A DNA stretch of 64,000 nucleotides, from assembly GCA_964572485.1 (NCBI GenBank), contig CAZNGA010000003.1, forward strand, positions 9,591 through 73,590. Direction: 5' to 3'. The notes under the pieces were generated by a model. The model ran no database searches and had not been told where the DNA came from. It was given only the letters and a program-made list of their open reading frames with translations. The DNA is from an uncultured Chitinophagales bacterium (lineage in GTDB: Bacteria > Bacteroidota > Bacteroidia > Chitinophagales > CAZNGA01). Positions 26,834 through 50,174 of the stretch are shown in pieces (position 1 is the stretch's first letter; the number at the start of each line of letters is the position of its first letter). A program made the position numbers and the translations under genes.

Positions 26834-26872
26834 AAAATAGTAATTTTATTAAGCACATAGTTTTATCTATAT

Positions 26873-27171: not shown

Positions 27172-27204
27172 CTCTTCCTTTTCTTCTTTCCTTCTTCTCT
27201 TTTT
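27172..27204. repeat. 33-nt pure polypyrimidine (CT) tract
   Basis: CTCTTCCTTTTCTTCTTTCCTTCTTCTCTTTTT, in the spacer just downstream of the A2 stop. Confidence 0.7.
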
Positions 27205-27257
27205 ATAGAAAAAGCCCCTCAAAAATGAGAACCTTTAATAATTAGGATCAAAATTTA

Positions 27258-31181: not shown

Positions 31182-31225
31182 AAATATATTTTTAAGTAGA
31201 TTCAGTTTTCCAATTTGTTCTATTT

Positions 31226-31318
31226 CTTACATACGTAAGGGACCAGTAACAATTCGATTTAATTTGACCAAACCTATGTACATCAAGTTAAGTGAACTTT
31301 ATTTAGGGATGAATGGAC
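31226..31318. promoter_or_regulatory. three-box upstream module of A2 (21/39 spacing)
   Basis: CTTACATACGTAAG (31226-31239), a 21-nt gap, AATTTGAC (31261-31268), a 39-nt gap, then GATGAATGGAC (31308-31318). Confidence 0.55.
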
Positions 31319-31564
31319 AAAAAAGTAAGATTAAACGGCCGAAACCTATACGATTGGCTATACCAAGACTTTACAATCCAACCTGGATATTCTGCTATAT
31401 CTATTAAGTCGATTCAAAGGGCTTAGATCAGCCACAATAAGTACCATTTACATAGGTAAGGATGATCTAGTTTTCCAATGATCTATCGATGCATGGATAC
31501 AATATAAGATCAGGTGTGACTTGGGAAATAAGTTGTGTTAGAGGGTAGTCATTGAAAGGAACAT

Positions 31565-35374: not shown

Positions 35375-35397
35375 AGTTTTCCCATTTAATACTATTT

Positions 35398-35469
35398 CTT
35401 ACATACGCGAACATTCCGGATAAATCCGAGTAAATTTGACGGAAGTGGTGGTAATTTCGATGAATGGAC
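35398..35469. promoter_or_regulatory. three-box upstream module of A3 (21/18 spacing)
   Basis: CTTACATACGCGAA (35398-35411, right half degenerate), a 21-nt gap, AATTTGAC (35433-35440), an 18-nt gap, then GATGAATGGAC (35459-35469). TAAATTTG at 35431-35438 matches TAnnTTTG on the plus strand. Confidence 0.55.
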
Positions 35470-35767
35470 CTATTCCTATGGTTAATAGCCTATAAGGTTG
35501 GATAAGGCACTTAAGCTCAATGACTGCAAGGTATTAAGGCAGTACATCATCACTTCAATACTCTTATACATAATAGGTAAGCACAGGGGAAGGGCCTACT
35601 AATGATCACTTCGGATCTGATACACAAGATAAATATCGCGGACTAAATTAGAAGTAGGTGTATTTGTAATATTTGAAACTTAGGGTAAGTACAATACAAA
35701 AAAATGCCCACATCGATTCACCTTCAGGTAGGATGCAGACATTTAAAGTTTTAATATGCTTTGTAGG

Positions 35768-38296
35768 TTATTGCTTGGCAATTGAAGAAGAGGAATTGCC
35801 TGAAACGACGATTTTTTGATAATAATAATTATTGTTATTGCTTCCATAGACAAAATATACGCCAGGTTTTAATTTGCTATTAATTACAAGCGTTTGAAAC
35901 ACCTTTTTATCAGTTGGCATCATAACTTTAGTATAGATATGTTTTCCTGATTGATCAATCAAATTTACAAGGACCTCTTTTTGAGAATCAAAACCATCAA
36001 ATTCAATATTAAAAGGTTGACCTGCAATAACAGGGTTTGGATAAATCTTTATGCCCGGCAGATCAATATGGTTCATATTGACAGATACCGGTGAAAAGTA
36101 TTTGTAATATCCATCAAAATCGGTTTGCTTCAATCGATAATAACTAATGCCGTAATAAGGAGTTTGATCGGTAAAAGTATAATTAGTTGAAATATATGAA
36201 GTTCCTTGTCCATAAACTTGTCCGATCTCTTCATAAACAACACCATCATCCGAATGCTCAAGTGTAAAGTAATCATTATTGATCTCAACTGCTGTCGACC
36301 AGGTCAGTGATACTTTATGGCCTACTATTTCAGCATTAAATCCAAGCAGTTCTATTGGTAAAATCGATCCGGCACCTCCACCTGTAAATCCATCGTTGGC
36401 AGGGATCTCACTGATACCTGTAGTATTGGATAGTGTATTTGTTGGTAGAGTAGCAGAATTATATGATGCCCAGGCACTTCCATCCCATCTTATCCCTAAG
36501 AGGTTGCTCTCGGATCCTACAATATCTGCATTTACATACACCGATTTATAGGTAAAGTTAATTGCCGAGAATCCACCACTATTTACATTCCATACTCTGG
36601 TGATATGAGCAGCGCCTGCATTTATATTAGGATGTTTTTCATCAGTGATATTTACGGACATGAAATCACCTCCGCCAAATGTGGTTCCTCCAATCAACTC
36701 TACCCAAAAAGGGGAATATTCATTATTATCCCCTACCGGATAATTGAATGGATTATTGAGTGCATCCATATTTTTGATCATTACACCTGCATTATCTGCT
36801 TGCACATAACTTGAAGCACTTTCATTGGACGATGTGGCATTGACGTCCATAGTCATATCATTTGACCCTAATACGATATCCCCAAGAGTAAGATCGAGGG
36901 TACGAGAAACTGTGATATCTGTATTCAATGATACATCACCACTTGAATTATTGATGGTCAGGTCATAATAGGTTTCACTAACACCATTGACAGTTTGGGC
37001 CGCTGCGCCATCGAATGTCATCATAGCACTTTGCTCATTGAAGGTACCATTGTCTGTCCAGTCACCTGCAAGAGTGATACTATAGTTGTTGGCAACATCT
37101 GCATCCAAAGTAGTGGAAGCTACTATCAACAGGTCGCCATCTACATTAATGTTTCCTACAAGTGTCTTTGTTGCTCCTCCTGAAAGTGTTATGTTGCCAT
37201 AGGGCTCACTATTTGATGGATTGGGAACACTTTGTGCACTAGTGGCAGCAAAATTCACTGTACTGTTAACATGGATATTATGATATGCAGTACTCGATGT
37301 TTGCAACATACCTCCTGTGGCATCTGTGGTTGTAGAATAATAAGTGGCGCCATCGGCAATTTCAAAAACCTTCCCATTCTTCAATTCAATACTGAATCCG
37401 CCGGAGTTCATTTGTCCGCTTTGGATTCGGATGCTGTCATCAACTCTATTCTTTACATCGGAGATACTAATATTTGCATCTAAAGTTACACCTGCCGCAT
37501 TATTAATTTCTATATCTCCATACAGCCACAAATTAGTGAATGAATTTCCATAATCGATCATGGATAGGGTTTGTGGTGATGTACCGTTGAAATTCACTAC
37601 TGTATTCACCTCACAATCCAGATCGCCATAGTTACCGGCTGCGCTTCGGTCAAAATTTCCTGCAATATTCAATATCCCAAAATCATTCATATTGATCTTT
37701 GAATTTCCCACTTGAGCTCCGGTATATATAATATCACCTCCAACTGTGCATATCGCATTTCCTTGAATTTTGAGTTCCGCTTTTTGATTACCATCTGTCC
37801 ACAGTAATACATCACCGACTACGGTCAATGTGCCATCTTCCTTCACATCAACTTTAGCATCATCCTGAGTATGATATGCTTTTAAAATCAAATCTCTTCC
37901 AATGGACACAGTTCCAGGGCTGGCAGTTTGCCCTAGTATCTCTATTAATGCCTTATGTTTGTAGTTGACCCCTCTTAATAGAACACCATTGGTTACAGTG
38001 AGGTCGCCATTATTATCTATAATTATCCTGGAATCCTTAGCGGAGCCACACATCACATGAATAGAATCGCAAGTTTCAGTTGAATTGACAGTAACAATAT
38101 ATCCCCCCTCAATTACAGCGATATCCCCACTCCCCGGGACAGATGCTCCTGAACCACCACCTGAAGTTGCTGACCAGGTGCCGGTACTGCTCCAATTACC
38201 GGTAGCCACTGAATAGCGTGTGGCTGCCTGGAGAAACATTGTGCAAAAGAAGATGATCAAGGTGATCAAAAAGAGAATAGTAGAGATCTTTTTCAT
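35768..38296 (-). CDS. T9SS type-A CTD protein, tandem paralog B1 (single module)
   Basis: The ORF extends to 38404. The ATG at 38296 gives signal peptide MKKISTILFLITLIIFFCTMFLQA. Opener TGNWSSTGTWSATSGGGSGASVPGSGD. Core YVQADNAG..YPVGD..YSPF..KHPN..ITRVW. LPIELLGF domain. CTD KIYPNPV...GVYFVY. Confidence 0.85.
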   Translation of the reverse strand: MKKISTILFLITLIIFFCTMFLQAATRYSVATGNWSSTGTWSATSGGGSGASVPGSGDIAVIEGGYIVTVNSTETCDSIHVMCGSAKDSRIIIDNNGDLTVTNGVLLRGVNYKHKALIEILGQTASPGTVSIGRDLILKAYHTQDDAKVDVKEDGTLTVVGDVLLWTDGNQKAELKIQGNAICTVGGDIIYTGAQVGNSKINMNDFGILNIAGNFDRSAAGNYGDLDCEVNTVVNFNGTSPQTLSMIDYGNSFTNLWLYGDIEINNAAGVTLDANISISDVKNRVDDSIRIQSGQMNSGGFSIELKNGKVFEIADGATYYSTTTDATGGMLQTSSTAYHNIHVNSTVNFAATSAQSVPNPSNSEPYGNITLSGGATKTLVGNINVDGDLLIVASTTLDADVANNYSITLAGDWTDNGTFNEQSAMMTFDGAAAQTVNGVSETYYDLTINNSSGDVSLNTDITVSRTLDLTLGDIVLGSNDMTMDVNATSSNESASSYVQADNAGVMIKNMDALNNPFNYPVGDNNEYSPFWVELIGGTTFGGGDFMSVNITDEKHPNINAGAAHITRVWNVNSGGFSAINFTYKSVYVNADIVGSESNLLGIRWDGSAWASYNSATLPTNTLSNTTGISEIPANDGFTGGGAGSILPIELLGFNAEIVGHKVSLTWSTAVEINNDYFTLEHSDDGVVYEEIGQVYGQGTSYISTNYTFTDQTPYYGISYYRLKQTDFDGYYKYFSPVSVNMNHIDLPGIKIYPNPVIAGQPFNIEFDGFDSQKEVLVNLIDQSGKHIYTKVMMPTDKKVFQTLVINSKLKPGVYFVYGSNNNNYYYQKIVVSGNSSSSIAKQ

Positions 38297-38447
38297 AATT
38301 GTTGCTTTGTTATTATAGTTTACGTTTTGACCAAATCCTTGTTTCGAATTGGCCTCCTGACTTATTAGTCGGTTTACTATCGCTGATAAATGGTCGTTAT
38401 TCATAAATAAATGGTTGGTATTATATAGTTACTATACTATCAACTCT

Positions 38448-38519
38448 CTTACTTACGTAAGTTTGTCTGCATAATCTGAGAAATTTTGACCGATGTAATG
38501 GAATATTCGACGAATGGAC
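38448..38519. promoter_or_regulatory. three-box upstream module of B1 (21/18 spacing)
   Basis: CTTACTTACGTAAG (38448-38461, containing the perfect 12-bp palindrome ACTTACGTAAGT), a 21-nt gap, ATTTTGAC (38483-38490), an 18-nt gap, then GACGAATGGAC (38509-38519). Confidence 0.6.
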
Positions 38520-38658
38520 CTATTATGGTGTTGAATAACTTTGTAGAATAGATAAGCTGCCTAATAGACAATAGAACTTTGAGTATGCAAATACATTTAT
38601 AGGGTCAGGAACCATTGGGGTATATTATCAAGGGGTAAAGTTACTGCCAACAATACAA

Positions 38659-38916
38659 CTACTGCTTAGCATAGGATGAAAAGGAAGAGGAGCTGCTTAC
38701 AACCACAATCTTTTGTTTATATAGCTGTTGATCGCTGGCTCCAATAACGAAATAGATACCAGGGTTTAAAGTATTGCCAATATCCTTGAATTTACAATTC
38801 ACCACTCTTTGGAATGGGGAGGCCGGGATCCGGGATATTGAAAATTGCCCATAAAATTCAACGTGCATTAAGGTTCCTGTATTTCTTGTCAGAGGATTAG
38901 CTACTGTGAATAGCAT
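38659..38916 (-). pseudogene. CTD-only relic of a family paralog
   Basis: The 85-aa ORF holds only a degenerate T9SS CTD: ANPLTRNTGTLMHVEF...NPGIYFVIGASDQQLYKQKIVVVSSSSSFSSYAKQ. The Ser-rich ...AKQ tail matches B1. No signal peptide or passenger domain. Confidence 0.6.
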
Positions 38917-39024
38917 GTGAAGAAGGTGGAAATTTCTTAAAGATCTCAGATAAGCTTAAATGTACCCTCTCTTTCTTTTTTTTCTCTGCCTGAAAGTACT
39001 TGATAAATTTGTAAGTCTTCATAT

Positions 39025-39639
39025 TCAAAATAGTTGTATTTCCCAAAATAACCAGCCAAACATTAGAAACCTCAATATACGCACGCTGGCAAATGCCATA
39101 TATCTATTTAATGGATAATCCATAGAACCTGATAAGATGCTGATAATAGAAAAAGGGATGGGTGTAAATGCTGCTATAGCGATATACATGCCTCCCCAGG
39201 ACAAGATATTCTTCTTGTATTTATTACTGAATCCGTTCAAGTACTTTGCTAAATATTTAATTTGGCATAACTTTTTTCCAAGCAACAATGAGACGATCCC
39301 ACCAAAATAGGAAAGAAATGCTAAAAGGAACAAAAAGATCACAGGGTGAGAACATTGCAAGGACCAAAGGATAAAAAAGTCTTGAGGTAATATGCCAAGA
39401 AAGGACTCTGAAATAAAGAAAACACCAAATACGATTGGAGGGAGCACTGCCAAATGAATGCTGGTTTCAAAATTAGTAGTTGAAAAAAAGTATTTAGAGG
39501 TTGCAAGAGCTCCTACTATCAAAATAATATATAGGAACCCATGAAGTATATTTCGTGATAAGATCTTGTACTCGATATTATTTAATGGAAGGCAAATGGC
39601 TCTTATCTTTGTAATTGAATTCTTGCTAAATTGCTTCAT
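39025..39639 (-). CDS. small polytopic membrane protein, YqaA/DedA (VTT-domain)-like
   Basis: 204 aa, about 5 TM segments. The LPQDFF..., YFGG....LG and AAFTPIPFSIISILSG patterns resemble the YqaA/DedA family. It starts 33 nt downstream of the paralog C stop on the same strand. Confidence 0.6.
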   Translation of the reverse strand: MKQFSKNSITKIRAICLPLNNIEYKILSRNILHGFLYIILIVGALATSKYFFSTTNFETSIHLAVLPPIVFGVFFISESFLGILPQDFFILWSLQCSHPVIFLFLLAFLSYFGGIVSLLLGKKLCQIKYLAKYLNGFSNKYKKNILSWGGMYIAIAAFTPIPFSIISILSGSMDYPLNRYMAFASVRILRFLMFGWLFWEIQLF

Positions 39640-39672
39640 GAGTGTGTATCTTGAGATTTTACAGAGATAAGA

Positions 39673-41730
39673 TCAATTACGAGCATAATTACTTGATCCA
39701 TTGCCACCTGATATGACCAACTTCTGCTGGCATATTTCGTTCTTACTGCTCGCGACTATCAGATATACCCCCGGAGCAAGGTTGTTCATTAGATCGATCC
39801 CTGTGAGTACGCCATTACTTTCAGTGATCATCACTTTAGAATATACCTGCTGTCCCGTATGGTTATAAAGAACCACCAACACTTCTTCATTAGCTTTCTT
39901 ATCGCTTATTTCCAGAGTTAATTCCTGTCCAGTTAATAGAGGATTAGGATAGATCTTCATGGTTGAAGTTGTATTAGTGATCTGTACAGCCACAGGATCA
40001 AAATATTCAAACCTCTGATCGTAGTCGGTTTGTTTGAGTCTATAGTAGCTGGTACCAGATAGTGGCGTATTGTCAATATAAGAATAGTTGTTTTCTGTGT
40101 ATGATGTCCCCATTCCTTCCACTTCCGCAATTACTTCAAAGTTGATCCCATCATTAGACCTTTCTACAGTATAATAGTCATTATTGATCTCAACTGACGA
40201 GGTCCAATTGATCTCAACTGATCTTCCAACAACTTCTGCACCCATATCCAACAATTCGATAGGGAGTGCCATTCCATTCCCCGCAGAGAAGTCATGGTTT
40301 GAAGGTATCTCTGATATACCACTGCTACTGGTAAGTGTATTGGTGACTGTATTTACATTATTGTATTGAGTCCAGGCAACCCCATTCCATCTGGCTGTAT
40401 TCAGGGTGGCCTCAGTGCCTGTAACGTCTACTTCATTATAGATATAGCTCACATCGTAATCAATAGAACCAATACCACTTGCATCTATGGTCCAATATCT
40501 TGTGATCAGATCACCCGGATCTAAGTTGGGATGGAGACCATCGGTTATATTACAAGTTATAGTAGCTGTACCCCCTGAACTGCTATTTTTTGTAAAGGTA
40601 AATGGTGAATATTCGTTCACATCTCCTACTAAAAAGTCAATTGAGCTATTGTTGTTAAATAGCTTTACCATTTTCCCACCATTCGAAGAGGTAACATCTA
40701 CATAACTATTGATACTGCCACCAGCTGTAGTACCTGATGTTGCAATGATCAGGTCATCTGCGCCAACTTTGATCACCCCATCAGACATGGTAAGTGTACC
40801 ATTTACTGTGACATCTCCCTCTAAGGTTAATTGTGGAGAAGTACCATAGCTATTGTTTATTGTAACATTCTCGTATGTAAAACCATCTGTGCCTGCTCCC
40901 TCATCTTCTCCGATCACTTGAGCTATAGAGGCATCAAATGTGATCGTTGAATTATCCTGCATATCAAATAATCCGTAGTTATTAGGAGTTGCCTGTCGTA
41001 TAACATCACCGGCAAGATTGATGCGTGTGTCATCCAGCACTTTAAAAACAACTCTGCTTTGAGCACTCGCAGTTATATAGATATCTCCAGACACATCTAA
41101 AAATGAGTTATCCTCAAATTTGCCATACACATCTTGTGAGCCCCCGCTGTAATCCATGGTGAGGTCTCCATCTACAATAAGTTGGCCATCATCTTTTACT
41201 GACAGTGATATTCTCTTTGTCCCGCCATCACTGTCAAGGGTCATATCCCCATTTACTCTCATTATTGAATTGTCATTTACCTTTATTTTTATCACATCTG
41301 AACCGCCATTTCTATAAGCCAGGAAATCACCTTGTACGGTAAGAATACCGCCACCCATTCCACCGGAATTTTCCTCCAGGTGCAAATGTGCTTCCCTCGA
41401 GCCGCCATTTGCATCTAAAAGCATATCTCCGGCTACGGTTAATGAATAGCCATCTTCAATTTCTAATTTACCATCATTGCTTCCTGAACCAAGAAGTTGA
41501 ACATATGCACAAGCCATATTTGCGTTATTAACTTCGATCTCATATCCCTGGATATAAGCGCTATCGCCTGCAACTGGGTAAGCGCCGGCTGCAGCCCCTC
41601 CAAAACCGGTTGTTGACCAGTTATTGTTGTCATCCCAGATACCCCCACTAATAGAATAGTAAATAGTAGCACCTGCGAAATTCATCGCTGCAAAAAAAGT
41701 AAGTCCGATTAATAAAATAAAGCGTTTCAT
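39673..41730 (-). CDS. T9SS type-A CTD protein, tandem paralog C
   Basis: The ORF extends to 41814. The ATG at 41730 gives MKRFILLIGLTFFAAMNFAGA. Opener SGGIWDDNNNWSTTGFGGAAAGAYPVAGD. Core SYVDV..FLVGD..YSPF..LHPN..ITRYW. LPIELLDM domain. CTD KIYPNPL...GVYLIV. Confidence 0.85.
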   Translation of the reverse strand: MKRFILLIGLTFFAAMNFAGATIYYSISGGIWDDNNNWSTTGFGGAAAGAYPVAGDSAYIQGYEIEVNNANMACAYVQLLGSGSNDGKLEIEDGYSLTVAGDMLLDANGGSREAHLHLEENSGGMGGGILTVQGDFLAYRNGGSDVIKIKVNDNSIMRVNGDMTLDSDGGTKRISLSVKDDGQLIVDGDLTMDYSGGSQDVYGKFEDNSFLDVSGDIYITASAQSRVVFKVLDDTRINLAGDVIRQATPNNYGLFDMQDNSTITFDASIAQVIGEDEGAGTDGFTYENVTINNSYGTSPQLTLEGDVTVNGTLTMSDGVIKVGADDLIIATSGTTAGGSINSYVDVTSSNGGKMVKLFNNNSSIDFLVGDVNEYSPFTFTKNSSSGGTATITCNITDGLHPNLDPGDLITRYWTIDASGIGSIDYDVSYIYNEVDVTGTEATLNTARWNGVAWTQYNNVNTVTNTLTSSSGISEIPSNHDFSAGNGMALPIELLDMGAEVVGRSVEINWTSSVEINNDYYTVERSNDGINFEVIAEVEGMGTSYTENNYSYIDNTPLSGTSYYRLKQTDYDQRFEYFDPVAVQITNTTSTMKIYPNPLLTGQELTLEISDKKANEEVLVVLYNHTGQQVYSKVMITESNGVLTGIDLMNNLAPGVYLIVASSKNEICQQKLVISGGNGSSNYARN

Positions 41731-41776
41731 GATTAATGATTTAGTTGTGTTCAAATCGTCATTTTTTCTCATAATA

Positions 41777-41790
41777 GTTACCCGTGTAAG
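41777..41790. promoter_or_regulatory. box1 palindrome upstream of paralog C (proximal copy)
   Basis: GTTAC-CCGT-GTAAG, 46 nt upstream of the ATG at 41730. A degenerate copy, CTGTC-ATAA-GTAAG, lies at 41859-41872. Confidence 0.45.
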
Positions 41791-41915
41791 TTTTTGTTTG
41801 TTTTCTGATAGCAATATATATCTTATCGCTTCTAAATAAAAGCCATTTGCTTCAGGACACTGTCATAAGTAAGATTTACAGTTATTTCTGGTAATCAATG
41901 AAGAAATGAAGGGTT

Positions 41916-41929
41916 ACTTACAGGTGTAA
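41916..41929. promoter_or_regulatory. box1 palindrome upstream of paralog C (distal copy)
   Basis: CTTAC-AGGT-GTAAG with perfect half-sites. Confidence 0.45.
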
Positions 41930-41993
41930 GAAATAACAGCTTTTGGTTTATTCTCTTAATAGATCATTACAGCAAAATGAATAGAATTGCAGT

Positions 41994-42034
41994 GAAGAAA
42001 GGAAGAGGAAGAAAGGAAAAGGAAAGAGAAAAGG
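41994..42034. repeat. 41-nt pure polypurine (GA) tract
   Basis: GAAGAAAGGAAGAGGAAGAAAGGAAAAGGAAAGAGAAAAGG, in the spacer between B2 and C. Confidence 0.7.
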
Positions 42035-42111
42035 TCCGATCCATATAGAACCGGGGCCATAATACAACTAAATCAACATCAAAATATTATTCAATTTTTC
42101 CCTATGTCATC

Positions 42112-44604
42112 TTATTTTATTATATCGCCAGAGATGATCAATCTCTGTTGATAGATGCTTTTATTACTGCTACCAATCACAAAATATACACCTGGTATCA
42201 ACTTATTATTTAAATCTATGGCAGTAGTAATTTCATCACCTTGAATCAATAGCACCTTCGAATAGACCTCTCTCCCATATTGATCTACAAGCACTACCAT
42301 CACTTCTTCATCAGGGGTAAATCCTTGCAGAATAACCTGCAATGACTGGCTTGGCAACACAGGATTTGGGTATAACTTAATAGTAGGTTTATCAACACTT
42401 ACAAAGTGTACAGCTATCGGTGCAAAATATTCAAATTGATGATCCACATCTGTTTGCTTCAATCTATAGTAGGAAGTCCCTGTAATTGGCTCAGAGTCAA
42501 CATATTTATAATTAGTGCTTTGATAGGTAGTCCCCTGGCCATTAATTGTTGATATAACTTCATAATCAAAACCATCATTCGATCTTTCAATTGTAAAATA
42601 ATCATTATTGATTTCAACAGCTGTACTCCAATATAATACAACCCTGTCTGTCTCTACATCTGCCCTAAAACTCAGCAATTCTATAGGTAAAGCACCTCCA
42701 CTGCCGCCTGTGAAATCATGGTTACTGGGAATAGTAGTGATCCCTATAGAATTGGAGAGTGTATTGATCGCAGGATTTACAGCATTATATGCACTCCATG
42801 AACTACCATTCCATTTGGCAGCTTTCAGGTTGGTTTCTGTGCCTACAATATCTTCGTCTAAATACACTGCCTTGTAACCATATTTAATAGCTGAAAAGCC
42901 CCCACTATTCATTCTCCAAAACCTTGTAATGTGGTCCCCTTCTGCCATATTTGCATGTTTTGCATCAGTCACCTTTATTGAAATATTATCACCCCCACCA
43001 AAAGAAGTTCCCCCTTGGAGCTTAAACCAAAATGGAGAAAATTCATCATTATCGCCAACCGGAAAGTCAAATGGCGTAGTGATCCCATTAAAATTCTTGG
43101 TCATTACTCCTTCATTATCTGCCTGAACATAACTGGAAGCACCTCCGTTAGATATTGTGGCATCAACATCCATTGTCAGATCATTAGCCCCCAGGACAAT
43201 ATCTCCACTAGAAAGGTTAAGGGTTCTGGTCACTGTAATATCAGCACTCAATGAAACATCACCACTACTATTATCGACGGTAAGATCATAAAATTCTTCA
43301 CTATTGCCATTTATTGCTTGAGGAGATGAGCCATCAAATGTCACTTCACCATTTCTCTCAATAAATGTACCATTGTCTGTCCAGTTTCCTGCGAGATCTA
43401 TAGTATAATCACTTCCATTCCCTACATCCAATGCAGCATTGGCAGTAATCAACAGATCTCCATTTATATCTACATTATCAGTAAGTGTTTTGGTAGCCCC
43501 TCCTGATAGGGTTACGTTACCATAGGATTCATTATTTGAGGGATCAGGGACATTCTGGGCACTGGTAGCAGCAAAATTTACAGTACTGTTGACATGGATA
43601 CTATGAGATGCACTAGTTGAAGTTTGTAGCATTCCACCTGTACCATCTGTGGTGGTAGTAGAATATGTTGTAGTGCCAGCCATCTCGAAGAACTTTCCAT
43701 TTGCCAATTCAATACTGTAACCGCCAGAATTCAGCTGGCCGGTCATTACACGAATATCATCTAATACTGTATTCGTCTCATCTGATTGAGAGATATCTGC
43801 ATCTAAAGTTACTCCTGCAGTATTATTGATCCTCACCTCTCCATAGGTCCATTCATTTGTAACAGCACCCCCATAATTGATCATTGAGAACACTTGAGCT
43901 GATGTGCCATTGAAGTTTATAGTTGTAGTCTCTTCACAATCAAGGTCCCCATAATTACCTGATGCACTTCTGTCAAAATTACCTGCCAGATTCATTAATC
44001 CATTGTCATTCATATTGATCTTTAAACTTCCTTTCTCAGCACCTTCATATAATACATCCCCCAGTATTGTGCATACTCCATCATCTTCTAATTTAAGTTC
44101 TGCTTCCTTATCACCATTTGCCCAGAGGGATACATTGCCGGTTATGGTTAATGATCCATCTTCTTTTACTTTTACCTTTGCTTCATCTTGATCATCATAA
44201 GCCATAAGGTTCAAATTGGAGCCAATTGACATTGTTCCAGGGAATCCACTCGAACCGGATATCTCAATTTCAACTTTATTTTTATTACTTTGGGTACTTA
44301 ATAAAGTACCATATATAACTGTCAGGTCTCCATTATCCTCAATGAGCAATTTAGAGTCATCCCCTGATCCGGAGCGCATATAGATACTATCACACTGCTC
44401 AATAGAATTTACGGTTACTTCTTCATCTTCAATAACCACAATATCTCCAACGCCGGGTACAGAAGCTCCGGATGAACCACCTGAAGTAGTTGACCAGGTA
44501 CTTGTATTATCCCAATCACCTGAATTTACCGAGTAGCGAGTCCCTGCCTGCAAACAAAAGTAGGTCATCATTATCAGACATACAGTAGTAAATAAAGTTT
44601 TCAT
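42112..44604 (-). CDS. T9SS type-A CTD protein, tandem paralog B2
   Basis: 830 aa with signal peptide MKTLFTTVCLIMMTYFCLQA. Opener SGDWDNTSTWSTTSGGSSGASVPGVGD. Core YVQADNEG..FPVGD..FSPF..KHAN..ITRFW. LPIELLSF domain. CTD KLYPNPV...GVYFVIG. Confidence 0.9.
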   Translation of the reverse strand: MKTLFTTVCLIMMTYFCLQAGTRYSVNSGDWDNTSTWSTTSGGSSGASVPGVGDIVVIEDEEVTVNSIEQCDSIYMRSGSGDDSKLLIEDNGDLTVIYGTLLSTQSNKNKVEIEISGSSGFPGTMSIGSNLNLMAYDDQDEAKVKVKEDGSLTITGNVSLWANGDKEAELKLEDDGVCTILGDVLYEGAEKGSLKINMNDNGLMNLAGNFDRSASGNYGDLDCEETTTINFNGTSAQVFSMINYGGAVTNEWTYGEVRINNTAGVTLDADISQSDETNTVLDDIRVMTGQLNSGGYSIELANGKFFEMAGTTTYSTTTTDGTGGMLQTSTSASHSIHVNSTVNFAATSAQNVPDPSNNESYGNVTLSGGATKTLTDNVDINGDLLITANAALDVGNGSDYTIDLAGNWTDNGTFIERNGEVTFDGSSPQAINGNSEEFYDLTVDNSSGDVSLSADITVTRTLNLSSGDIVLGANDLTMDVDATISNGGASSYVQADNEGVMTKNFNGITTPFDFPVGDNDEFSPFWFKLQGGTSFGGGDNISIKVTDAKHANMAEGDHITRFWRMNSGGFSAIKYGYKAVYLDEDIVGTETNLKAAKWNGSSWSAYNAVNPAINTLSNSIGITTIPSNHDFTGGSGGALPIELLSFRADVETDRVVLYWSTAVEINNDYFTIERSNDGFDYEVISTINGQGTTYQSTNYKYVDSEPITGTSYYRLKQTDVDHQFEYFAPIAVHFVSVDKPTIKLYPNPVLPSQSLQVILQGFTPDEEVMVVLVDQYGREVYSKVLLIQGDEITTAIDLNNKLIPGVYFVIGSSNKSIYQQRLIISGDIIK

Positions 44605-44651
44605 TACACTTAATTTTAATTATAGAATTATTGTTGAATTTCCTTTCATTA

Positions 44652-44714
44652 CAAATATATATCTTGACATGAGGTGATACAAACCATGTTAAAATGGTTG
44701 CTTTCCCGTGTAAG
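44652..44714 (-). promoter_or_regulatory. candidate B2 promoter: box1 plus TAnnTTTG box
   Basis: Box1 CTTTC-CCGT-GTAAG (44701-44714). On the minus strand, TATATTTG (44659-44652) lies 41 nt below it and about 48 nt upstream of the ATG at 44604. A TTTG sits 20 nt upstream of the -7 box. Confidence 0.5.
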
Positions 44715-44816
44715 TTTATTTCAATTAAATAGGGAATTCAATCCTTTTTTTCGACCAATGGATATAATACATTTAAAGGGCGGATCTATTGGCTTACCTG
44801 ACCATGGATATAATAT

Positions 44817-44850
44817 AGAAGCCCCTTATCAAGTATGATAAGGGGCTTCT
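44817..44850 (-). terminator. perfect 14-bp hairpin downstream of B3
   Basis: AGAAGCCCCTTATC-aagtat-GATAAGGGGCTTCT, 41 nt past the B3 stop at 44892. Confidence 0.7.
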
Positions 44851-44891
44851 AACAATTACAACGAAGTATAAAAGTTAAATAACTATATCTC

Positions 44892-47402
44892 TTAATTTGA
44901 AGAAGAATTACTGGAGCTGGAAATAATCAACCTTTTTTTATGTATCGTTCTTTCATCGCTTCCAATAACAAAGTAAAGTCCGGGTGGAATTTTACCATAA
45001 AGGTCAATAGCTGTAAGCACCTGGCTACTCTCCATCATTATCACTTTTGAAAAAACCTCTCTGCCAAATTGATCCATCAGCAAGACAACCACTTCTTTAT
45101 ATGGTTCAAATCCTTCTAAGACCACATTCAAAGATTGGTTGGGCAGCACAGGGTTTGGGTACAATTCAATGGATGTATTATTTGAATATTCTAATACCAC
45201 TGTTACCGGTGCAAAATATTCGAAATGATGATCATAATCAGCTTGCTTCAGCCTGTAATATGAAGTCCCTTGGTAGGGTGAAACATCTACATATTTGTAG
45301 TCAGTACTTTGATATGTGGTTCCTTGCCCTTCAATAGTAACCAAGATCTCGAAATCAATACCATCATTAGAGCGCTCTATAGTAAAATAGTCATTATTGA
45401 TCTCAACAGCAGTTGACCAGGTGAGTAGCACTTCAGAGCCAACAACTTCAGCATTAAATCCTAATAACTCTATTGGCAGTATTGCACCTGCACCACCTCC
45501 GGTAAATCCATCGTTGGCAGGAATTTCACTGATCCCTGTAGTATTGGACAGGGTATTTGTTGAGGCAGAAACCGAATTGTATGATGTCCAGGCACTTCCA
45601 TCCCATCTTATCCCTAAGAGGTTGCTCTCGGAGCCTACAATATCTGCATCCACATACACTGATTTATAGGTAAAGTTAATTGCCGAGAAACCACCACTGT
45701 TTACATTCCATACTCTGGTGATATGAGCAGTACCTGGGTTAATCTGAACATGCTTGGAGTCGATTATATTTACAGAGATAAAATCACTTCCACCAAATGT
45801 GGTTCCACCGATCAACTCTACCCAAAAAGGAGAATATTCATTATTATCCCCTACCGGATAATTGAATGGATTATTGAGTGCATCCATATTTTTGATCATT
45901 ACACCTGCATTATCTGCTTGCACATAACTTGAAGCACTTTCATTGGACGATGTGGCATTGACGTCCATAGTCATATCATTTGACCCTAATACGATATCCC
46001 CAAGAGTAAGATCGAGGGTACGAGAAACTGTGATATCTGTATTCAATGATACATCACCACTTGAATTATTGATGGTCAGGTCATAATAGGTTTCATTAAC
46101 GCCGTTGATTGTTTGAGCTGAAGATCCATCAAATGTTACTTTTCCATTTCGCTCATTATAGGTTCCATTATCTGTCCAGTTTCCTGCCAGATCTATATCA
46201 TAATCATTTCCGTTATCTGCATCCAGGGTAGAAGTTGCAGTAATCAAAAGGTCGCCATTCACATCAATATTATCTACAAGTGTTTTGGTAGCCCCACCTG
46301 ACATGGTTACATTACCATAGGGTTCACTATTTGAGGGATCAGGGACATTTTGCGCACTGGTGGCTGCAAAATTCACCATACTATTTACATGGATATCATG
46401 AGAGGCAGAAGTAGAGGTCTCCAACATCCCACCAGTAGCATCTGTGGTAGTGGTATAATAAGTTGTTGCACTTGCAATCTCAAAAACCTTTCCATTTCCC
46501 AGTTCTATACTATATCCTCCTGAGTTCATCTGACCGCTCAGGATACGAATATCATCCAAGACTGTATTATTAACATCTGATTGAGAGATATCTGCATCTA
46601 AAGTTACTCCTGCAGTATTATTGATCCGTACTTCCCCATATGTCCATACATCGGTAGCCGATCCACCGTAGTCAATCATCGAAAGAGTTTGTGCAGATGA
46701 GCCATTGTAATTTACGACAGTGTTCAATTCACAATCCAACTCCCCATAATTTCCAGAGGCACTCCTGTCAAAATTGCCTGCAATGTTCAATACTGCGTTG
46801 TCCTTAACTCTCAATCTTGGCTTACCTAGCTCAGCCCCCTCAAATATAATATCTCCCACTACAATAGCTGTAGCATCATTTTCTACATTAAATTCAGCTT
46901 TTTTATCGCCATCGGTCCATAAAAACACATCCCCGCTTACGGTCAATGAACCATCATCAATTACATTAACTTCTGCATCATCTTCTCCATCAAAACCCCT
47001 TATGATCAAATCTCCTCCAATAGACATCGTCCCCGGAGTTCCGCTTGTGCCAAATATCTCAAGAGTTGCTTTATTACCATTATTTTCTGTTGTGAGAAAC
47101 ACACCATTCGTAACGGTAAGATCACCATCATCATCAACTAATAGTTTACTATCATTACCAGAGCCGGAAATAATATAAATACTATCACATTGTTCCACAG
47201 AATTTACAGTTACTGTATATTCGTCTTCAATTATTACCACATCACCACTACCGGGAACAGAAGCCCCTGAAGATCCTCCGGAACTTGTTGCCCAGGTGTT
47301 CGTATTATCCCAATCACCATTGTTGACGGAGTAACGATTAGCTGCATCAACATTGTACTCTATAACACTGATGATGAATAGTGTTGTAAATAAATACTTC
47401 AT
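44892..47402 (-). CDS. T9SS type-A CTD protein, tandem paralog B3
   Basis: 836 aa with signal peptide MKYLFTTLFIISVIEYNVDA. Opener NGDWDNTNTWATSSGGSSGASVPGSGD. An 88-aa stretch is identical to B1. LPIELLGF domain. CTD ELYPNPV...GLYFVIG. Confidence 0.9.
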   Translation of the reverse strand: MKYLFTTLFIISVIEYNVDAANRYSVNNGDWDNTNTWATSSGGSSGASVPGSGDVVIIEDEYTVTVNSVEQCDSIYIISGSGNDSKLLVDDDGDLTVTNGVFLTTENNGNKATLEIFGTSGTPGTMSIGGDLIIRGFDGEDDAEVNVIDDGSLTVSGDVFLWTDGDKKAEFNVENDATAIVVGDIIFEGAELGKPRLRVKDNAVLNIAGNFDRSASGNYGELDCELNTVVNYNGSSAQTLSMIDYGGSATDVWTYGEVRINNTAGVTLDADISQSDVNNTVLDDIRILSGQMNSGGYSIELGNGKVFEIASATTYYTTTTDATGGMLETSTSASHDIHVNSMVNFAATSAQNVPDPSNSEPYGNVTMSGGATKTLVDNIDVNGDLLITATSTLDADNGNDYDIDLAGNWTDNGTYNERNGKVTFDGSSAQTINGVNETYYDLTINNSSGDVSLNTDITVSRTLDLTLGDIVLGSNDMTMDVNATSSNESASSYVQADNAGVMIKNMDALNNPFNYPVGDNNEYSPFWVELIGGTTFGGSDFISVNIIDSKHVQINPGTAHITRVWNVNSGGFSAINFTYKSVYVDADIVGSESNLLGIRWDGSAWTSYNSVSASTNTLSNTTGISEIPANDGFTGGGAGAILPIELLGFNAEVVGSEVLLTWSTAVEINNDYFTIERSNDGIDFEILVTIEGQGTTYQSTDYKYVDVSPYQGTSYYRLKQADYDHHFEYFAPVTVVLEYSNNTSIELYPNPVLPNQSLNVVLEGFEPYKEVVVLLMDQFGREVFSKVIMMESSQVLTAIDLYGKIPPGLYFVIGSDERTIHKKRLIISSSSNSSSN

Positions 47403-47469: not shown

Positions 47470-47532
47470 CAAAAATAAAACATTAGTCAAGTGAAAGCAA
47501 TCAGATTTGCACTACAATCTTTCGCATGTAAG
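47470..47532 (-). promoter_or_regulatory. candidate B3 promoter: box1 plus TAnnTTTG box
   Basis: Box1 CTTTC-GCAT-GTAAG (47519-47532). On the minus strand, TATTTTTG (47477-47470) lies 41 nt below it, the same spacing as at B2. A TTG sits 20 nt upstream of the -7 box. Confidence 0.5.
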
Positions 47533-47656: not shown

Positions 47657-48019
47657 TTACAATAAGTTAAGTCGTTGCATTAAGCTTTTCCTATAAGATT
47701 TGCTGATCGGAATGGGCTTTTTATCCAATATAAGGATCTTTCCCTGTATGGCAGCGATCTTATCAATACGGATGATGTATGATCTGTGTACCCTGATAAA
47801 ATCTTCAGCAGGGAGCTTACCTTCAATACCTTTCATGGTAGAATGAACGGTGTAATTTTCATGCTCAGTTTGAATGATCACATAATCACCATACGCTTTG
47901 ATCCACAGGATATCTTCAGGATAGATCTTTAAAAGGCGTGCAGCCGCTTTCAGAAATATGTGGTTGCTCTGAAAAGTGGTTTGTTTACTAGGCTGATTCA
48001 AGTTGTTGCTTTGGAACAT
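47657..48019 (-). CDS. stand-alone LytTR-domain DNA-binding protein (no receiver domain), copy 1
   Basis: 120 aa. DILWIKAYGDYVIIQTEHENYTVHSTMKGIEGKLPAEDFIRVHRSYIIRIDKI is a complete LytTR domain preceded by only about 30 aa. Confidence 0.85.
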   Translation of the reverse strand: MFQSNNLNQPSKQTTFQSNHIFLKAAARLLKIYPEDILWIKAYGDYVIIQTEHENYTVHSTMKGIEGKLPAEDFIRVHRSYIIRIDKIAAIQGKILILDKKPIPISKSYRKSLMQRLNLL

Positions 48020-48071
48020 ATTTTCATGGTTTTGATGAGGTCAATATATAATACGCAGCGGAAGCTCTTTT

Positions 48072-48109
48072 GTTACAATAGTTACGGGCTTTGTCATACG
48101 TTTGTCATA
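48072..48109. promoter_or_regulatory. repeat cluster upstream of LytTR copy 1
   Basis: GTTAC-AATA-GTTAC (48072-48085, direct half-sites), then TTTGTCATA twice with 11-bp phasing (48090-48098 and 48101-48109). The cluster lies 53-90 nt upstream of the ATG at 48019. Confidence 0.35.
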
Positions 48110-48155
48110 TTTATTTTTATCTTATATGAAATGTGTTTTTTCAATAATATTGCGT

Positions 48156-48524
48156 CTAATCCATTCTTTTCATTAGTTCTTTCCTGAAGGAATCACTTAC
48201 CGGTATCAGCTTCTTTCCTACCTCCAGAGTCTTATTATTTATCGCATTTATTTTATCAATGGCCACAATATATGATCTGTGTACTCTTATAAATTTAGCC
48301 TCAGGAAGCATCTCTTCAATTTCCTTCATTGTTGCATGTACTGTATGTCTATCTTGAAAAGTTTTAATACTGACGTATGAGCCAAAGGCCTCCACACAAA
48401 GGATAGCATCAAGCAGTATCTTGAGGATGGGCGCCTTCTCTTTCACGAAAAGTGGTTTACTTGGTGGTACTCTCTTTCTCATATTGCTATCTTGGTTTTC
48501 AAAGCCGTCAATATTTCTGATCAT
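48156..48524 (-). CDS. stand-alone LytTR-domain DNA-binding protein, copy 2
   Basis: 122 aa. AILCVEAFGSYVSIKTFQDRHTVHATMKEIEEMLPEAKFIRVHRSYIVAIDKI. Confidence 0.85.
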   Translation of the reverse strand: MIRNIDGFENQDSNMRKRVPPSKPLFVKEKAPILKILLDAILCVEAFGSYVSIKTFQDRHTVHATMKEIEEMLPEAKFIRVHRSYIVAIDKINAINNKTLEVGKKLIPVSDSFRKELMKRMD

Positions 48525-48556
48525 GTCAATTAGTTTTAAATTGTTTGCCTATAGTA

Positions 48557-48628
48557 AAACTATACGTAAGGTTCCAGGTAAAAGGTGATTAATTTTGATG
48601 GATGCATTGATTAAAAGGACGAATGGGT
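48557..48628. promoter_or_regulatory. three-box module upstream of LytTR copy 2 (21/18 spacing, same as A3 and B1)
   Basis: ATACGTAAG ends at 48570 (the left half-site is degenerate), a 21-nt gap, ATTTTGAT (48592-48599), an 18-nt gap, then GACGAATGGGT (48618-48628). TAATTTTG at 48590-48597 matches TAnnTTTG on the plus strand. Confidence 0.55.
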
Positions 48629-48733
48629 CAATTATTCGGATTAACGAACCATTTAGGTGGTTGACTATCCATTAATTGTGTTGAATTGATGATTCAATGG
48701 ATACGAGTATAGGTACATTCCTTCTTTTTGAAT

Positions 48734-48764
48734 AAAAAAACCCCCGATACGCATGTACCGGGGG
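48734..48764 (-). terminator. orphan intrinsic terminator (minus strand) inside an ORF-free spacer
   Basis: CCCCCG-12 nt loop-CGGGGG, preceded on the plus strand by A7 (U7 after the stem on the minus strand). It lies 450 nt below the nearest upstream minus-strand stop codon. Confidence 0.65.
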
Positions 48765-49116
48765 TCTCTCTGTGATACTAAAACTAAATTACAATTACTA
48801 AAACTTAAAAATTATGAATATGTCATTGGTTGCTTGATTCTATACATTAAACGAAAAAAAGCAGTAATTGGTTTCATAAATTCGATGAATTGACCTGTTT
48901 ACAGTTAAAATAAAGCACATTATGCCCCCTGCTCAAACAGGGAATATTGATTCAAGTTGATTGATTATGTTGGGAGTATTGGGATTCCTGCTTGTCGACA
49001 GACAGGATTTTATTGATAATTTTTATTGCTCCTGATATTTAAATTATTCGCCTAACCAGCTAATTAATGATCACGATGCACTTTGGCATCGGGATTAATT
49101 CAACTACTAATTTTTA

Positions 49117-49153
49117 TTAAAAAGAAAACCCCTACCATCTAATTGGTAAGGGT
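49117..49153 (-). terminator. intrinsic terminator of LytTR copy 3
   Basis: ACCCCTACCA-tctaat-TGGTAAGGGT (9 of 10 bp paired), followed on the minus strand by TTTTCTTTTT. It lies about 60 nt past the stop at 49213. Confidence 0.6.
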
Positions 49154-49212
49154 CTCTTCTGATAATCAAAACCTAAGAAAGAGGATAGATCTTTAAAGGT
49201 TTTCTATGAAAA

Positions 49213-49557
49213 CTAAAGCAGATTTAAATTTTGCATCAAATTCTCCTTGTACGAATTACTAACAGGGATATATTTTGAGGCAACTTTTAGTGTTTTACCG
49301 TTTACAGAGTTGATCTTATCCAGGGCAACAATAAATGATCTATGTACGCGAATGAAAAATTCGGGGATCAGTTTCTTTTCAATGCCCTTCATTGTTGTGT
49401 GAACAGTATATTTTCTTTCAGGTGTATGGATGATAACATAGTTGCCTAGTGCTTCGATCCATAAAATATCTTCCACATTTATTCTATGAAAATGGGTACT
49501 TGTTTTCACAAAAAAGTTCGCATTTGGCTTCTGCGATATGGTCTGTTTGTTCTTCAT
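49213..49557 (-). CDS. stand-alone LytTR-domain DNA-binding protein, copy 3
   Basis: 114 aa. DILWIEALGNYVIIHTPERKYTVHTTMKGIEKKLIPEFFIRVHRSFIVALDKI. It starts 32 nt downstream of the 165-aa CTD protein gene on the same strand. Confidence 0.85.
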   Translation of the reverse strand: MKNKQTISQKPNANFFVKTSTHFHRINVEDILWIEALGNYVIIHTPERKYTVHTTMKGIEKKLIPEFFIRVHRSFIVALDKINSVNGKTLKVASKYIPVSNSYKENLMQNLNLL

Positions 49558-49589: not shown

Positions 49590-50087
49590 TTATTTTACGA
49601 TCAATTGTTGTCTTTTTATGCTATCAAAGCTTTTCACTACTATATAATAGGTCCCTGATTCTAATTCAAATCCATAGTTTATATTTTCCACTGTCCCATC
49701 GTTATTGGTAATGAAATCTTTGGAAAATATCACCTTTCCATTTTGATCAAGAAAATTAACCGTGATCTCCTTGACACCTAGCACATTTAGTTGGATGCTT
49801 ATGTTACTGGAAGTCTCAATAGGGTTTGGGAAAATATTAAATGAAAATGCCGGATAAGGTTCAAAACTTTTGACTGTGTTGCTTCGTTCTACTTTTTTAT
49901 TATCCGGTACACTGTAAGGCATACTTTCCACAACCGTAACTGTGGTTATGTTATTATGTTCATCACTCTTTACTTCAGTCGTTTCACTTTGAGCATAAAT
50001 AAAACAGGATATAAGTAAACTAATAGTCAACATGGCCAATCCTTTTGAAGCAAAAGGCGAAAAACGAATATGTTGTATCCTGTTCAT
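49590..50087 (-). CDS. minimal T9SS substrate: signal peptide + short linker + type-A CTD only
   Basis: 165 aa. Signal LAMLTISLLISCFIYAQS, an about 50-aa linker, then the CTD FNIFPNPIETSSNISIQLN...FLDQNGKVIFSKDF...GTYYIVV...RQQLIVK. Confidence 0.8.
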   Translation of the reverse strand: MNRIQHIRFSPFASKGLAMLTISLLISCFIYAQSETTEVKSDEHNNITTVTVVESMPYSVPDNKKVERSNTVKSFEPYPAFSFNIFPNPIETSSNISIQLNVLGVKEITVNFLDQNGKVIFSKDFITNNDGTVENINYGFELESGTYYIVVKSFDSIKRQQLIVK

Positions 50088-50160: not shown

Positions 50161-50174
50161 GTTACACATGTAAG
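50161..50174. promoter_or_regulatory. box1 palindrome upstream of the 165-aa CTD gene / LytTR copy 3 pair
   Basis: GTTAC-ACAT-GTAAG followed by ATTTTGAGG, 73 nt upstream of the ATG at 50087. A near -7 box, GTAATTTG, lies on the minus strand at 50120-50113 (40-nt gap). Confidence 0.45.

Follow-up and report, generated by a model that had tools for sequence, protein, structure and literature searches.

The LytTR genes and their surroundings

We analysed a 64-kb stretch of DNA (the window; 64,000 nt of contig CAZNGA010000003.1, assembly GCA_964572485.1) from an uncultured Chitinophagales bacterium, in which three short genes each encode a LytTR DNA-binding domain and no receiver (REC) domain. 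The genes, which we call LytTR1, LytTR2 and LytTR3 or together the trio, stand next to an array of seven paralogous genes for cargo proteins of the type IX secretion system (T9SS), and promoter elements are shared between the two groups (Table 1). Every gene from 23048 to 55664 is on the minus strand. Read along that strand, the order is an 897-aa cargo gene, a 165-aa gene, LytTR3, LytTR2, LytTR1 and then the seven array paralogs, with gaps of 32 bp (165-aa gene to LytTR3), 688 bp (LytTR3 to LytTR2), 136 bp (LytTR2 to LytTR1) and 254 bp (LytTR1 to the array). In what follows, array genes are named by their lower coordinate.

A preliminary description of this DNA had placed three open reading frames (ORFs) here, and all three are found where it put them, on the minus strand. 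It had also called the proteins receiver-less, which is correct. LytTR (PF04397) is the sole Pfam match in each protein; the matches cover profile positions 2–97 of 98 and all score above the gathering score of 22.6. Response_reg had no match in the LytTR1, LytTR2 and LytTR3 proteins, and we found no remnant of a receiver upstream of the genes. Each ORF opens at the first start codon past a stop, so an extension to a receiver is not possible; in the case of LytTR2 the true start may be Met15. Pairwise identity within the trio is 47–54%.

The AlphaFold2 model of LytTR1 (mean predicted local distance difference test score, pLDDT, 85.5) is disordered in residues 1–16 and has a complete LytTR fold in residues 21–116, with 10 strands and 2 short helices that give the same ten-stranded beta fold as AgrA_C. 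Foldseek matched the model to 3D6W, 4CBV, 4G4K and 3BS1 with E-values of 1e-7 to 4e-6, and ComE is included among the best matches. Against the LytTR domain of AgrA, with or without DNA, the target-normalised template modelling (TM) score is 0.80 and the root-mean-square deviation 1.9 Å. In a profile alignment the base-contacting residues H169 and N201 of AgrA align to Y46 and R79, and neither of the two varies within the trio or its stand-alone relatives. Residue 45, which adjoins a predicted base-contact residue, differs across the trio (D/S/N).

We compared the trio genes with each other and with those of a related contig (L001, described below). Synonymous divergence (dS) was saturated, nonsynonymous divergence (dN) was 0.27–0.44 and amino-acid identity was 47–70%. 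Saturated dS with dN in this range indicates purifying selection on the LytTR genes, not decay, although the saturation is also why we give no numeric dN/dS. Judging by their sequences, we take the trio to be genuine functional genes and not decayed fragments.

The gene upstream of LytTR3 encodes a small T9SS substrate. Its N-terminus has a hydrophobic segment, and its C-terminal domain (CTD) matches TIGR04183 with a score of 30.7 (cut-off 23) and Pfam Por_Secre_tail with 26.7, slightly below the cut-off of 27. The pairing of one LytTR copy with a minimal T9SS substrate that had been proposed from the sequence is thus confirmed, with the signal peptide and T9SS C-terminal domain in a 165-aa protein 32 bp upstream of LytTR3. 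There is no terminator in the 32-bp gap and LytTR3 is probably co-transcribed with this gene.

We looked for partners of the trio. None of the 35 large ORFs examined in the 64 kb encodes a histidine kinase, and no ORF of at least 20 aa with a transmembrane segment adjoins the trio; the adjacent downstream genes are LytTR or array genes. This agrees with the earlier observation that no kinase or membrane partner is beside the trio. Hidden ORFs, pseudogenes and receiver remnants were not found in the flanking gaps. We examined the 688-bp gap in particular and found no known RNA, pseudogene or concealed membrane ORF in it; its Rfam matches were far below gathering scores and we judged them to reflect terminator hairpins.

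Table 1. Genes and sequence elements of the LytTR cluster, by position in the window.
Feature	Position	Strand	Remarks
Full-length REC+LytTR response regulator	19651..20430	-	Orphan; far end of the array
Cargo array (presumed regulon)	23048..47402	-	Seven paralogous T9SS type-A cargo genes, YqaA/VTT gene and CTD remnant
Module upstream of 27258-31181	31226..31316	-	Box 1 31308-31316, box 3 31226-31239
Module upstream of 31565-35374	35397..35467	-	Box 1 35459-35467, box 2 35438-35446, box 3 variant 35397-35410
Module upstream of 35768-38404	38448..38517	-	Box 1 38509-38517, box 2 38488-38496, box 3 38448-38461
YqaA/VTT membrane protein (DedA superfamily, PF09335)	39025-39639	-	204 aa; inserted mid-array, 33 bp behind the 713-aa paralog
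Box 3 upstream of 39673-41814	41917..41930	-	Palindrome
Box 3 upstream of 42112-44604	44701..44714	-	48.5 nt before -7 box TATATTTG
Box 3 upstream of 44892-47402	47519..47532	-	48.5 nt before -7 box TATTTTTG
LytTR1	47657..48019	-	120 aa, receiver-less; ORF, Pfam LytTR E 2e-23, AlphaFold2 model with Foldseek match to AgrA/ComE
LytTR1 upstream region	48090..48109	-	TATGACAAA twice, 11-bp period, on either side of the box 3 core ACGTATG
LytTR2	48156..48524	-	122 aa, receiver-less; ORF, Pfam LytTR E 1e-19
LytTR2 box 3	48557..48570	-	CTTACGTATAGTTT; left half-site and -7-like box TAGTTTTA
LytTR2 promoter boxes 1 and 2	48597..48626	-	9-12-9 direct repeat: box 1 CCATTCGTC 48618-48626, 12-bp spacer, box 2 GCATCCATC 48597-48605
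Orphan unit	48734..48895	-	Box-1-like GGTCAATTCATCGAA, 22-nt core TTCATAATTTTTAAGTTTTAGT 48797-48818, strong terminator 48734-48768
Intrinsic terminator 3' of LytTR3	49125..49156	-	Terminator search
LytTR3	49213..49557	-	114 aa, receiver-less; ORF, Pfam LytTR E 4e-22
Mini T9SS substrate, first gene of the LytTR3 unit	49590..50087	-	165 aa; signal peptide, ~45 aa, type-A C-terminal domain
Box 3 of the 165-aa/LytTR3 unit	50161..50174	-	CTTACATGTGTAAC; ~87-88 nt upstream of the unit, similar distance in L095, L097 and L100
T9SS cargo gene, BNR/sortilin-like	50243-52936	-	897 aa

Promoter elements of the trio and the array

The preliminary description had proposed a three-box module upstream of array genes and of one LytTR copy. 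We found that the module is real and specific to this cluster, and that LytTR2 has it in full. Box 1, CCATTC(G/A)TC, occurs 5 times in the window (1.44 +/- 1.13 expected), a number that 0 of 100 shuffles reached. Four of the five copies are on the coding strand, one each upstream of array genes 27258, 31565 and 35768 and one upstream of LytTR2. Box 2, a degenerate version of box 1, follows it after a spacer of exactly 12 bp and matches it at 6–7 of 9 positions in three of the four modules (35438, 38488 and 48597; sequences ACTTCCGTC, ACATCGGTC and GCATCCATC). In the fourth, upstream of 27258, the +21 position is unmatched and a box-2-like GGTCAAA lies at +42. The pair at LytTR2, CCATTCGTC-N12-GCATCCATC, matches at 7 of 9 positions, and there is no such pair at LytTR1 or LytTR3. 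The other T9SS cargo genes of the window (14308-19392, 20640-22949 and 53861-54514) do not have the box module.

Receiver-less LytTR regulators are known to autoactivate through 9-12-9 repeats immediately upstream of promoters (PMC6193735). Box 1 is also one base (8/9) from the AlgR consensus CCGTTCGTC and from a footprinted AlgR site, CCGTTCATC (PMC4787818). Similar sites occur on other contigs. In a Flammeovirgaceae metagenome-assembled genome (MAG; L083), a perfect CCATTCGTC-N12-CCATTCGTC at 6833-6862 (+) lies 57 bp upstream of an operon of a 361-aa gene, a histidine kinase and a REC+LytTR regulator, and a second site, TCATTGATC-N12-CCATTCGTC at 12390-12419 (-), lies upstream of a neighbouring 688-aa TPR/outer-membrane-like gene. 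By their sequences we read these two as a textbook LytTR operator pair. In L001 there is an exact box 1 (CCATTCATCGAA), with TTCRTCGA repeats phased 42/21/21 bp upstream of the array gene, and CCACTCGTC followed by TTCATC 21 bp on is found upstream of two other genes. The offset of 21 stands out in L001 in a blind self-similarity test (z = 8.1). We also considered CCATTCATC, which lies downstream of the closest full-length regulators (L006-L008, L026), as an operator and rejected it, as it is the C-terminal coding sequence (...DEWGFEV and stop) of a convergent gene.

Box 3 is a 14-bp near-palindrome, CTTAC-N4-GTAAG. Allowing at most one mismatch there are 9 matches in the window, of which 7 are in intergenic DNA of the cluster (intergenic DNA makes up 9.5% of the window). 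The core WACGTAW occurs 24 times; 12 of these are intergenic, and all 12 precede an array gene, LytTR1, LytTR2 or the 897-aa gene. In 1.5 Mb of loci with full-length regulators, box 3 is at background frequency (~1 per 55 kb) and never beside the regulator gene, and a 1.6-kb contig with a receiver-less LytTR gene (L097) has two copies. A direct-repeat cluster had been described at another LytTR copy, and LytTR1 does have a small one, with TATGACAAA twice at an 11-bp period.

In four receiver-less LytTR units that are independent of each other, the left half-site WTCTTAC precedes the first start codon by 88 nt (LytTR3 unit of the window), 91 nt (L095), 92 nt (L097) and 87 nt (L100), and it is the sole conserved island when these four upstream regions are aligned. 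None of 78 full-length regulator genes has it upstream (0/78; the background prediction is 0.023 per 200 nt). A receiver-less LytTR gene is the only feature common to the four loci, since L100 has no T9SS context, and autoregulation by the LytTR protein through box 3 would be the most economical reading.

We then scanned 12 promoters for a -7-like box, defined as TAnnTTTG with at most one mismatch. The palindrome is present in 10 of them, and in 7 of the 10 the -7-like box is 44.5–52.5 nt downstream of the palindrome centre. The spacing is exactly 48.5 nt in 42112, 44892, one L097 promoter (L097b) and, with a weaker box, L100. This would put box 3 at roughly -57 to -61, the position of an upstream activator. 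We also tried to read box 3 as an extracytoplasmic function (ECF)-type -35/-10 promoter with CGTA as the -10, and by inspection there was no consistent GxAAC-type -35 at the right spacing. A scan for sigma-70 promoters gave 10 sites where 14.6 were expected, and such a scan is uninformative for Bacteroidota.

Two WACGTAW cores (GATACGTATATCTACGTAAGAAA) are also found at 53333-53349 (-), roughly 400 nt ahead of the start called for the 897-aa gene 50243-52936. On the basis of these motifs, this non-paralogous cargo gene may be in the same regulon.

Relatives and conservation of the linkage

We searched 185,579 species genomes for the nearest relatives and examined the best 80 loci. In 78 of the 80, the match was an ordinary REC+LytTR response regulator of 228–294 aa. 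A T9SS-tail match was within 10 kb in 5 of the 80 loci, and none of the 78 regulator genes is in a comparable T9SS-cargo setting. A scan of metagenomes gave the same picture, with almost only full-length regulators without T9SS neighbours. In an exhaustive profile search, 67 cluster representatives reached E<=1e-30, and among the best 150 representatives about 65% are full-length regulators, about 20% have 141–200 aa and about 15% have 140 aa or fewer. Some of the short relatives start with Met and are apparently complete (P0092, P0095, P0105, P0134, P0143 and others) and some are fragments (P0116, P0121). By these comparisons the trio are output domains of a Bacteroidota LytR/AlgR-type clade after loss of the receiver. 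Because receiver loss is recurrent in the clade, the architecture of the trio proteins is not new in itself; what is specific here is that they form a tandem trio embedded among T9SS cargo genes.

Orthologs of the trio were found in at least 4 contig families besides the window. A word-indexed search of metagenomes found eight stand-alone LytTR1 orthologs (P0002-P0009, 61–73% identity, 117–129 aa), and there are further ones at L001 5833-6222 and L098 791-1153. LytTR2 shares the motif FLKEKAP with L001 5356-5715 and L098 309-674, and P0095 is an ortholog of LytTR3 (53% identity).

L001, from the Bacteroidota MAG GCA_022573915.1, has, in this order, three CTD proteins (496, 669 and 298 aa), a gap of 39 bp, a LytTR2-like protein of 119 aa, the LytTR1 ortholog of 129 aa and an array-like gene. 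L002 and L003 are shorter contigs with parts of the same layout. In L098/L099, a gene that ends in a T9SS CTD has a LytTR2-like gene (121 aa) 48 bp behind it, and a LytTR1 ortholog (120 aa) and a terminator come next. A core of CTD protein, LytTR2-like gene and LytTR1-like gene is thus kept in at least three lineages, the window included.

The preliminary description had suggested a regulatory link between the trio and the adjacent surface family, and this link is backed by the common cluster-specific cis-elements and by the conserved synteny in L001-L003 and L098/L099. The suggestion had come with the reservation that orthologs without linkage to the family would argue against it. Among true orthologs we found none that argues against it in this way, and the unlinked genes that we found belong to the wider receiver-less family. 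Our observations comprise the proteins and their fold, the purifying selection on the genes, the synteny, and the presence of cis-elements that are both specific and conserved.

There were three observations on small neighbours in these contigs. In L104, a 124-aa hydrophobic membrane protein (3111-3485) is encoded 8 bp downstream of the LytTR gene, a pair like those of the LytTR regulatory systems (LRS) of streptococci. In L097, a 44-aa single-pass membrane ORF (707-841) lies between box 3 and the LytTR gene. The N-termini MKEILY, MKKELYTKRK and MREIYIKRKK of an array gene, an L001 CTD protein and the L097 small ORF, respectively, look alike, but they are too short and A-rich to interpret.

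The cargo array and the orphan unit

The seven array paralogs encode, from 5' to 3' on the minus strand, proteins of 836, 830, 713, 878, 1269, 1307 and 1261 aa. The preliminary description had spoken of a multigene surface family, which is borne out by these seven T9SS-tailed proteins at 23048-47402. Por_Secre_tail is at or above the Pfam cut-off of 27 in 23048, 27258, 31565, 35768 (exactly at the cut-off) and 39673, and in the 897-aa gene 50243. It is below the cut-off in 44892 (16.9), and 42112 has no Pfam match; both of these align to the paralogs in their C-terminal part and match an in-house C-terminal-domain hidden Markov model. We asked whether the 204-aa membrane protein encoded within the array could be an inhibitor of the LRS type and ruled this out, as it is a generic YqaA/VTT (PF09335) protein.

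Beyond the array there is a divergent FG-GAP/ASPIC T9SS protein and the full-length REC+LytTR regulator 19651-20430, which the preliminary description had omitted. The LytTR domain of this regulator is only distantly related to the trio.

The called starts of the array genes at 31181, 38404 and 41814 are probably too far upstream, as their signal peptides begin at about residues 47, 37 and 29. In 27258-31181 and 35768-38404 the called ATG also overlaps a -7-like promoter box. From the sequence, the true starts of the three genes are likely to be internal Met codons. A GC-rich hairpin with a T-rich tail at 47442-47458 (-) lies in the presumed 5' leader of 44892-47402, past its -7 box, and could act as an attenuator there. 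In the 620-bp gap upstream of 35768-38404, 85 codons of a T9SS C-terminal sorting domain are left at 38659-38916 (-), and this remnant points to an earlier gene loss or rearrangement in the array.

A metagenome contig from the JGI (L091, from 3300002231) is a partial copy of this region and ends before the LytTR genes. It is 99.9% identical to window 26861-41691, with 5 mismatches and 7 indels. One of the indels splits the 878-aa array gene into 515 + 29 + 333 aa, either through an error in sequencing or because this array member varies by frameshift.

Between LytTR3 and LytTR2 there is an orphan unit with a box-1-like sequence and a strong terminator. It has no credible ORF and no match to an Rfam family. 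Its 22-nt core is identical at 21 of 22 positions in L095 (590-800), where the layout after the LytTR3 ortholog is the same, and local alignment of the orphan unit with L095 scores 39, compared to 18.5 +/- 2.9 in shuffles. We consider the unit a candidate for a module-driven small RNA.

Comparison with known LytTR systems

The LRS HdrRM and BrsRM of Streptococcus mutans consist of a receiver-less LytTR regulator and a co-transcribed transmembrane inhibitor, and their operators are 9-bp repeats 12 bp apart upstream of the regulator's own promoter (PMC6193735). Like the LRS, the window has LytTR regulators without a receiver domain and multiple paralogous copies in one genome (in LRS the copies cross-regulate). 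The candidate 9-12-9 repeat at LytTR2 (CCATTCGTC-N12-GCATCCATC) has the same geometry, and the half-site of box 3, WWWTCTTAC, shares a TCTTA core with ACCTCTTAG and ACATCTTAT. However, the second component by which an LRS is defined, a transmembrane inhibitor transcribed together with the regulator, is absent from the trio, and the most conserved element here is a palindrome and not a direct repeat. An LRS is a two-gene operon, whereas the trio is in tandem inside a cargo-gene array and one of its copies is the second gene behind a T9SS substrate.

With AlgR, AgrA, ComE and BtsR the trio shares the DNA-binding fold (Foldseek target TM 0.80 to AgrA). It is 50–57% identical to the C-terminal domain of Bacteroidota regulators of 230–255 aa, and its box 1 is close to the AlgR consensus as described above. 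Unlike the LytR/AlgR family, the trio proteins have neither a receiver nor its phospho-acceptor, and there is no cognate kinase of the LytS/AlgZ/AgrC type in the window. Activation via phosphorylation-driven dimerisation is therefore impossible for them.

The trio can also be compared with the single-copy receiver-less LytTR proteins of other Bacteroidota (P0092, P0095, P0105, P0134 and P0143), which are of the same clade and have 108–123 aa. In P0092, P0095 and P0105, WTCTTAC is 87–92 nt upstream of the first start codon of the unit. In contrast to the trio, these genes are single and in unrelated contexts, not in tandem and not among T9SS cargo genes.

Interpretation

The reading that we favour, with a probability of roughly 0.5, is that the trio are autoregulated local transcription factors that control the neighbouring T9SS array via a shared promoter module. 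On this reading the trio would have descended from the Bacteroidota LytR/AlgR-type regulator family and become fixed inside a T9SS surface-protein cluster, and LytTR operators would have spread across the promoters of the adjacent cargo paralogs. The proteins would bind a composite module that is present both in their own promoters and in those of the array genes, giving feedback as well as control of the array. LytTR2 has the complete module, LytTR3 would be driven together with the mini-cargo gene from the box 3 promoter, and LytTR1 has kept only the ACGTATG core, set within the TATGACAAA direct repeat. Because there is no phospho-acceptor domain, kinase or membrane inhibitor, the output would depend not on phosphorylation but on how abundant the paralogs are and how they interact. 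Their abundance, in turn, may follow from promoter feedback and from LytTR3 sharing an operon with a cargo gene, and the paralogs may compete or cooperate. We infer the protein-to-box assignment, the sign of the regulation and the autoregulation. That the regulators are signal-blind and form a mutually exclusive or combinatorial switch, as had been suggested for this locus, finds no direct support in our observations, though a switch would be compatible with three paralogs and heterogeneous promoters. Phase variation through DNA inversion was considered and rejected, as we found neither a recombinase gene nor an invertible element, and the promoters are not flanked by inverted repeats.

Several points weigh against the reading that we favour. 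The modules of the array genes are paralogous copies and thus are not independent evidence, box 2 is a weak copy of box 1, and the blind self-similarity test, which is so clear for L001, gives z ~0 for the 21-bp offset in the window, which is not significant. Only the ACGTATG core of box 3 is present at LytTR1 and the full palindrome was not found in L001. The positions of the boxes relative to the promoter are estimates from the -7-like sequences. To our knowledge all characterised LytTR operators are direct repeats, and we know of no palindromic one; box 3 could belong to the core promoter or serve a different factor. Single receiver-less LytTR genes also occur in unrelated contexts, such as prfB-LytTR-DUF5916 in L100-L102, next to hydrolases (P0134) and next to riboflavin synthase (L104). 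Finally, we found no LytTR neighbours beside distant homologs of the array (L092-L094, 32–38% identity), so the linkage with the array is lineage-specific and not a general rule.

Some of these points would also fit the idea that the co-location is incidental. In that case the module would be a lineage-specific promoter architecture for another factor or an alternative sigma, spread through duplication and promoter capture, and the LytTR proteins would have their targets elsewhere. Box 3 is palindromic and overlaps the -7-like sequence in some promoters, the array-gene modules are paralogous and receiver-less relatives occur singly in unrelated contexts, all of which an incidental arrangement would explain. 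It would not explain that box 3 is found at a fixed distance from receiver-less LytTR genes in unrelated contexts (the prfB-LytTR-DUF5916 locus of L100), that box 1 agrees with a proven LytTR operator in 8 of its 9 bases, or that the other T9SS cargo genes of the window (listed above) are without the module. We regard this explanation as possible, at rather low odds. It is unlikely, in our view, that the trio are competitive antagonists, which would occupy the CCATTCRTC repeats, block a full-length LytTR regulator (19651-20430 or one elsewhere) and so damp or gate the array. The rationale is that they have the DNA-binding domain but lack the receiver, through which dimerisation and activation take place, and it gains from the full REC+LytTR regulator that flanks the array, from the full-length regulators being the closest relatives of the trio and from the perfect 9-12-9 site in L083 being linked to one of them. 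However, the LytTR domain of 19651-20430 has no BLAST match to the trio at 1e-5, so shared specificity is not indicated, and box 3 accompanies receiver-less genes and not full-length ones. The characterised receiver-less regulators HdrR and BrsR, moreover, are activators (PMC6193735).

A sensory system like the LRS is a long shot. Here the co-transcribed, signal-anchored CTD protein (165 aa in the window, 298 aa in L001) would take the place of the membrane inhibitor and link LytTR activity to export by the T9SS. A CTD protein is immediately before a LytTR gene in three lineages with gaps of 32–48 bp, the 44-aa membrane ORF of L097 is in the equivalent position, and in L104 a membrane protein follows the LytTR gene. 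Yet the signal peptide of the CTD protein is ordinary and cleavable-looking and there is no evident cytoplasmic domain, the LytTR3 ortholog in L095 is directly behind its promoter with no partner, and in known LRS the inhibitor gene is downstream of the regulator (PMC6193735). We would put an extended version at similarly poor odds, in which the operon of a signal-anchored T9SS-CTD protein and a receiver-less LytTR protein is a secretion-coupled feedback device. The partner or the flux of T9SS cargo would gate LytTR and, with the three paralogs and the small RNA candidate (48734-48895), this would make a self-contained circuit that selects which array members are expressed. It is very improbable that the three ORFs have no function and are what is left of truncated response regulators. 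Their nearest relatives are full-length and some short database relatives are clear fragments (P0116, P0121), but these are three intact paralogs with orthologs in at least 4 other contig families, the fold is complete, there are no receiver remnants upstream, and amino-acid identity of 47–70% has been retained with dS saturated.

Significance

As far as we know, the regulation of T9SS cargo is poorly understood outside Porphyromonas and Flavobacterium, and we know of no regulators for the large paralogous cargo arrays of environmental Bacteroidota. The phylogenetic distribution of the arrangement described here is narrow, and the protein architecture is common. If the link between the LytTR genes and the array fails, the locus would be another case of a common stand-alone LytTR architecture. 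The locus is a compact and testable system, with three small DNA-binding proteins, candidate operators (CCATTCRTC 9-12-9 and CTTAC-N4-GTAAG) and a candidate regulon. Should the receiver-less proteins prove to have the palindrome as their operator, this would be the first inverted-symmetry site for LytTR, and it would also show how the output domain of a response regulator can be re-used once the receiver is lost, in the absence of the membrane inhibitor that is the hallmark of the LRS.

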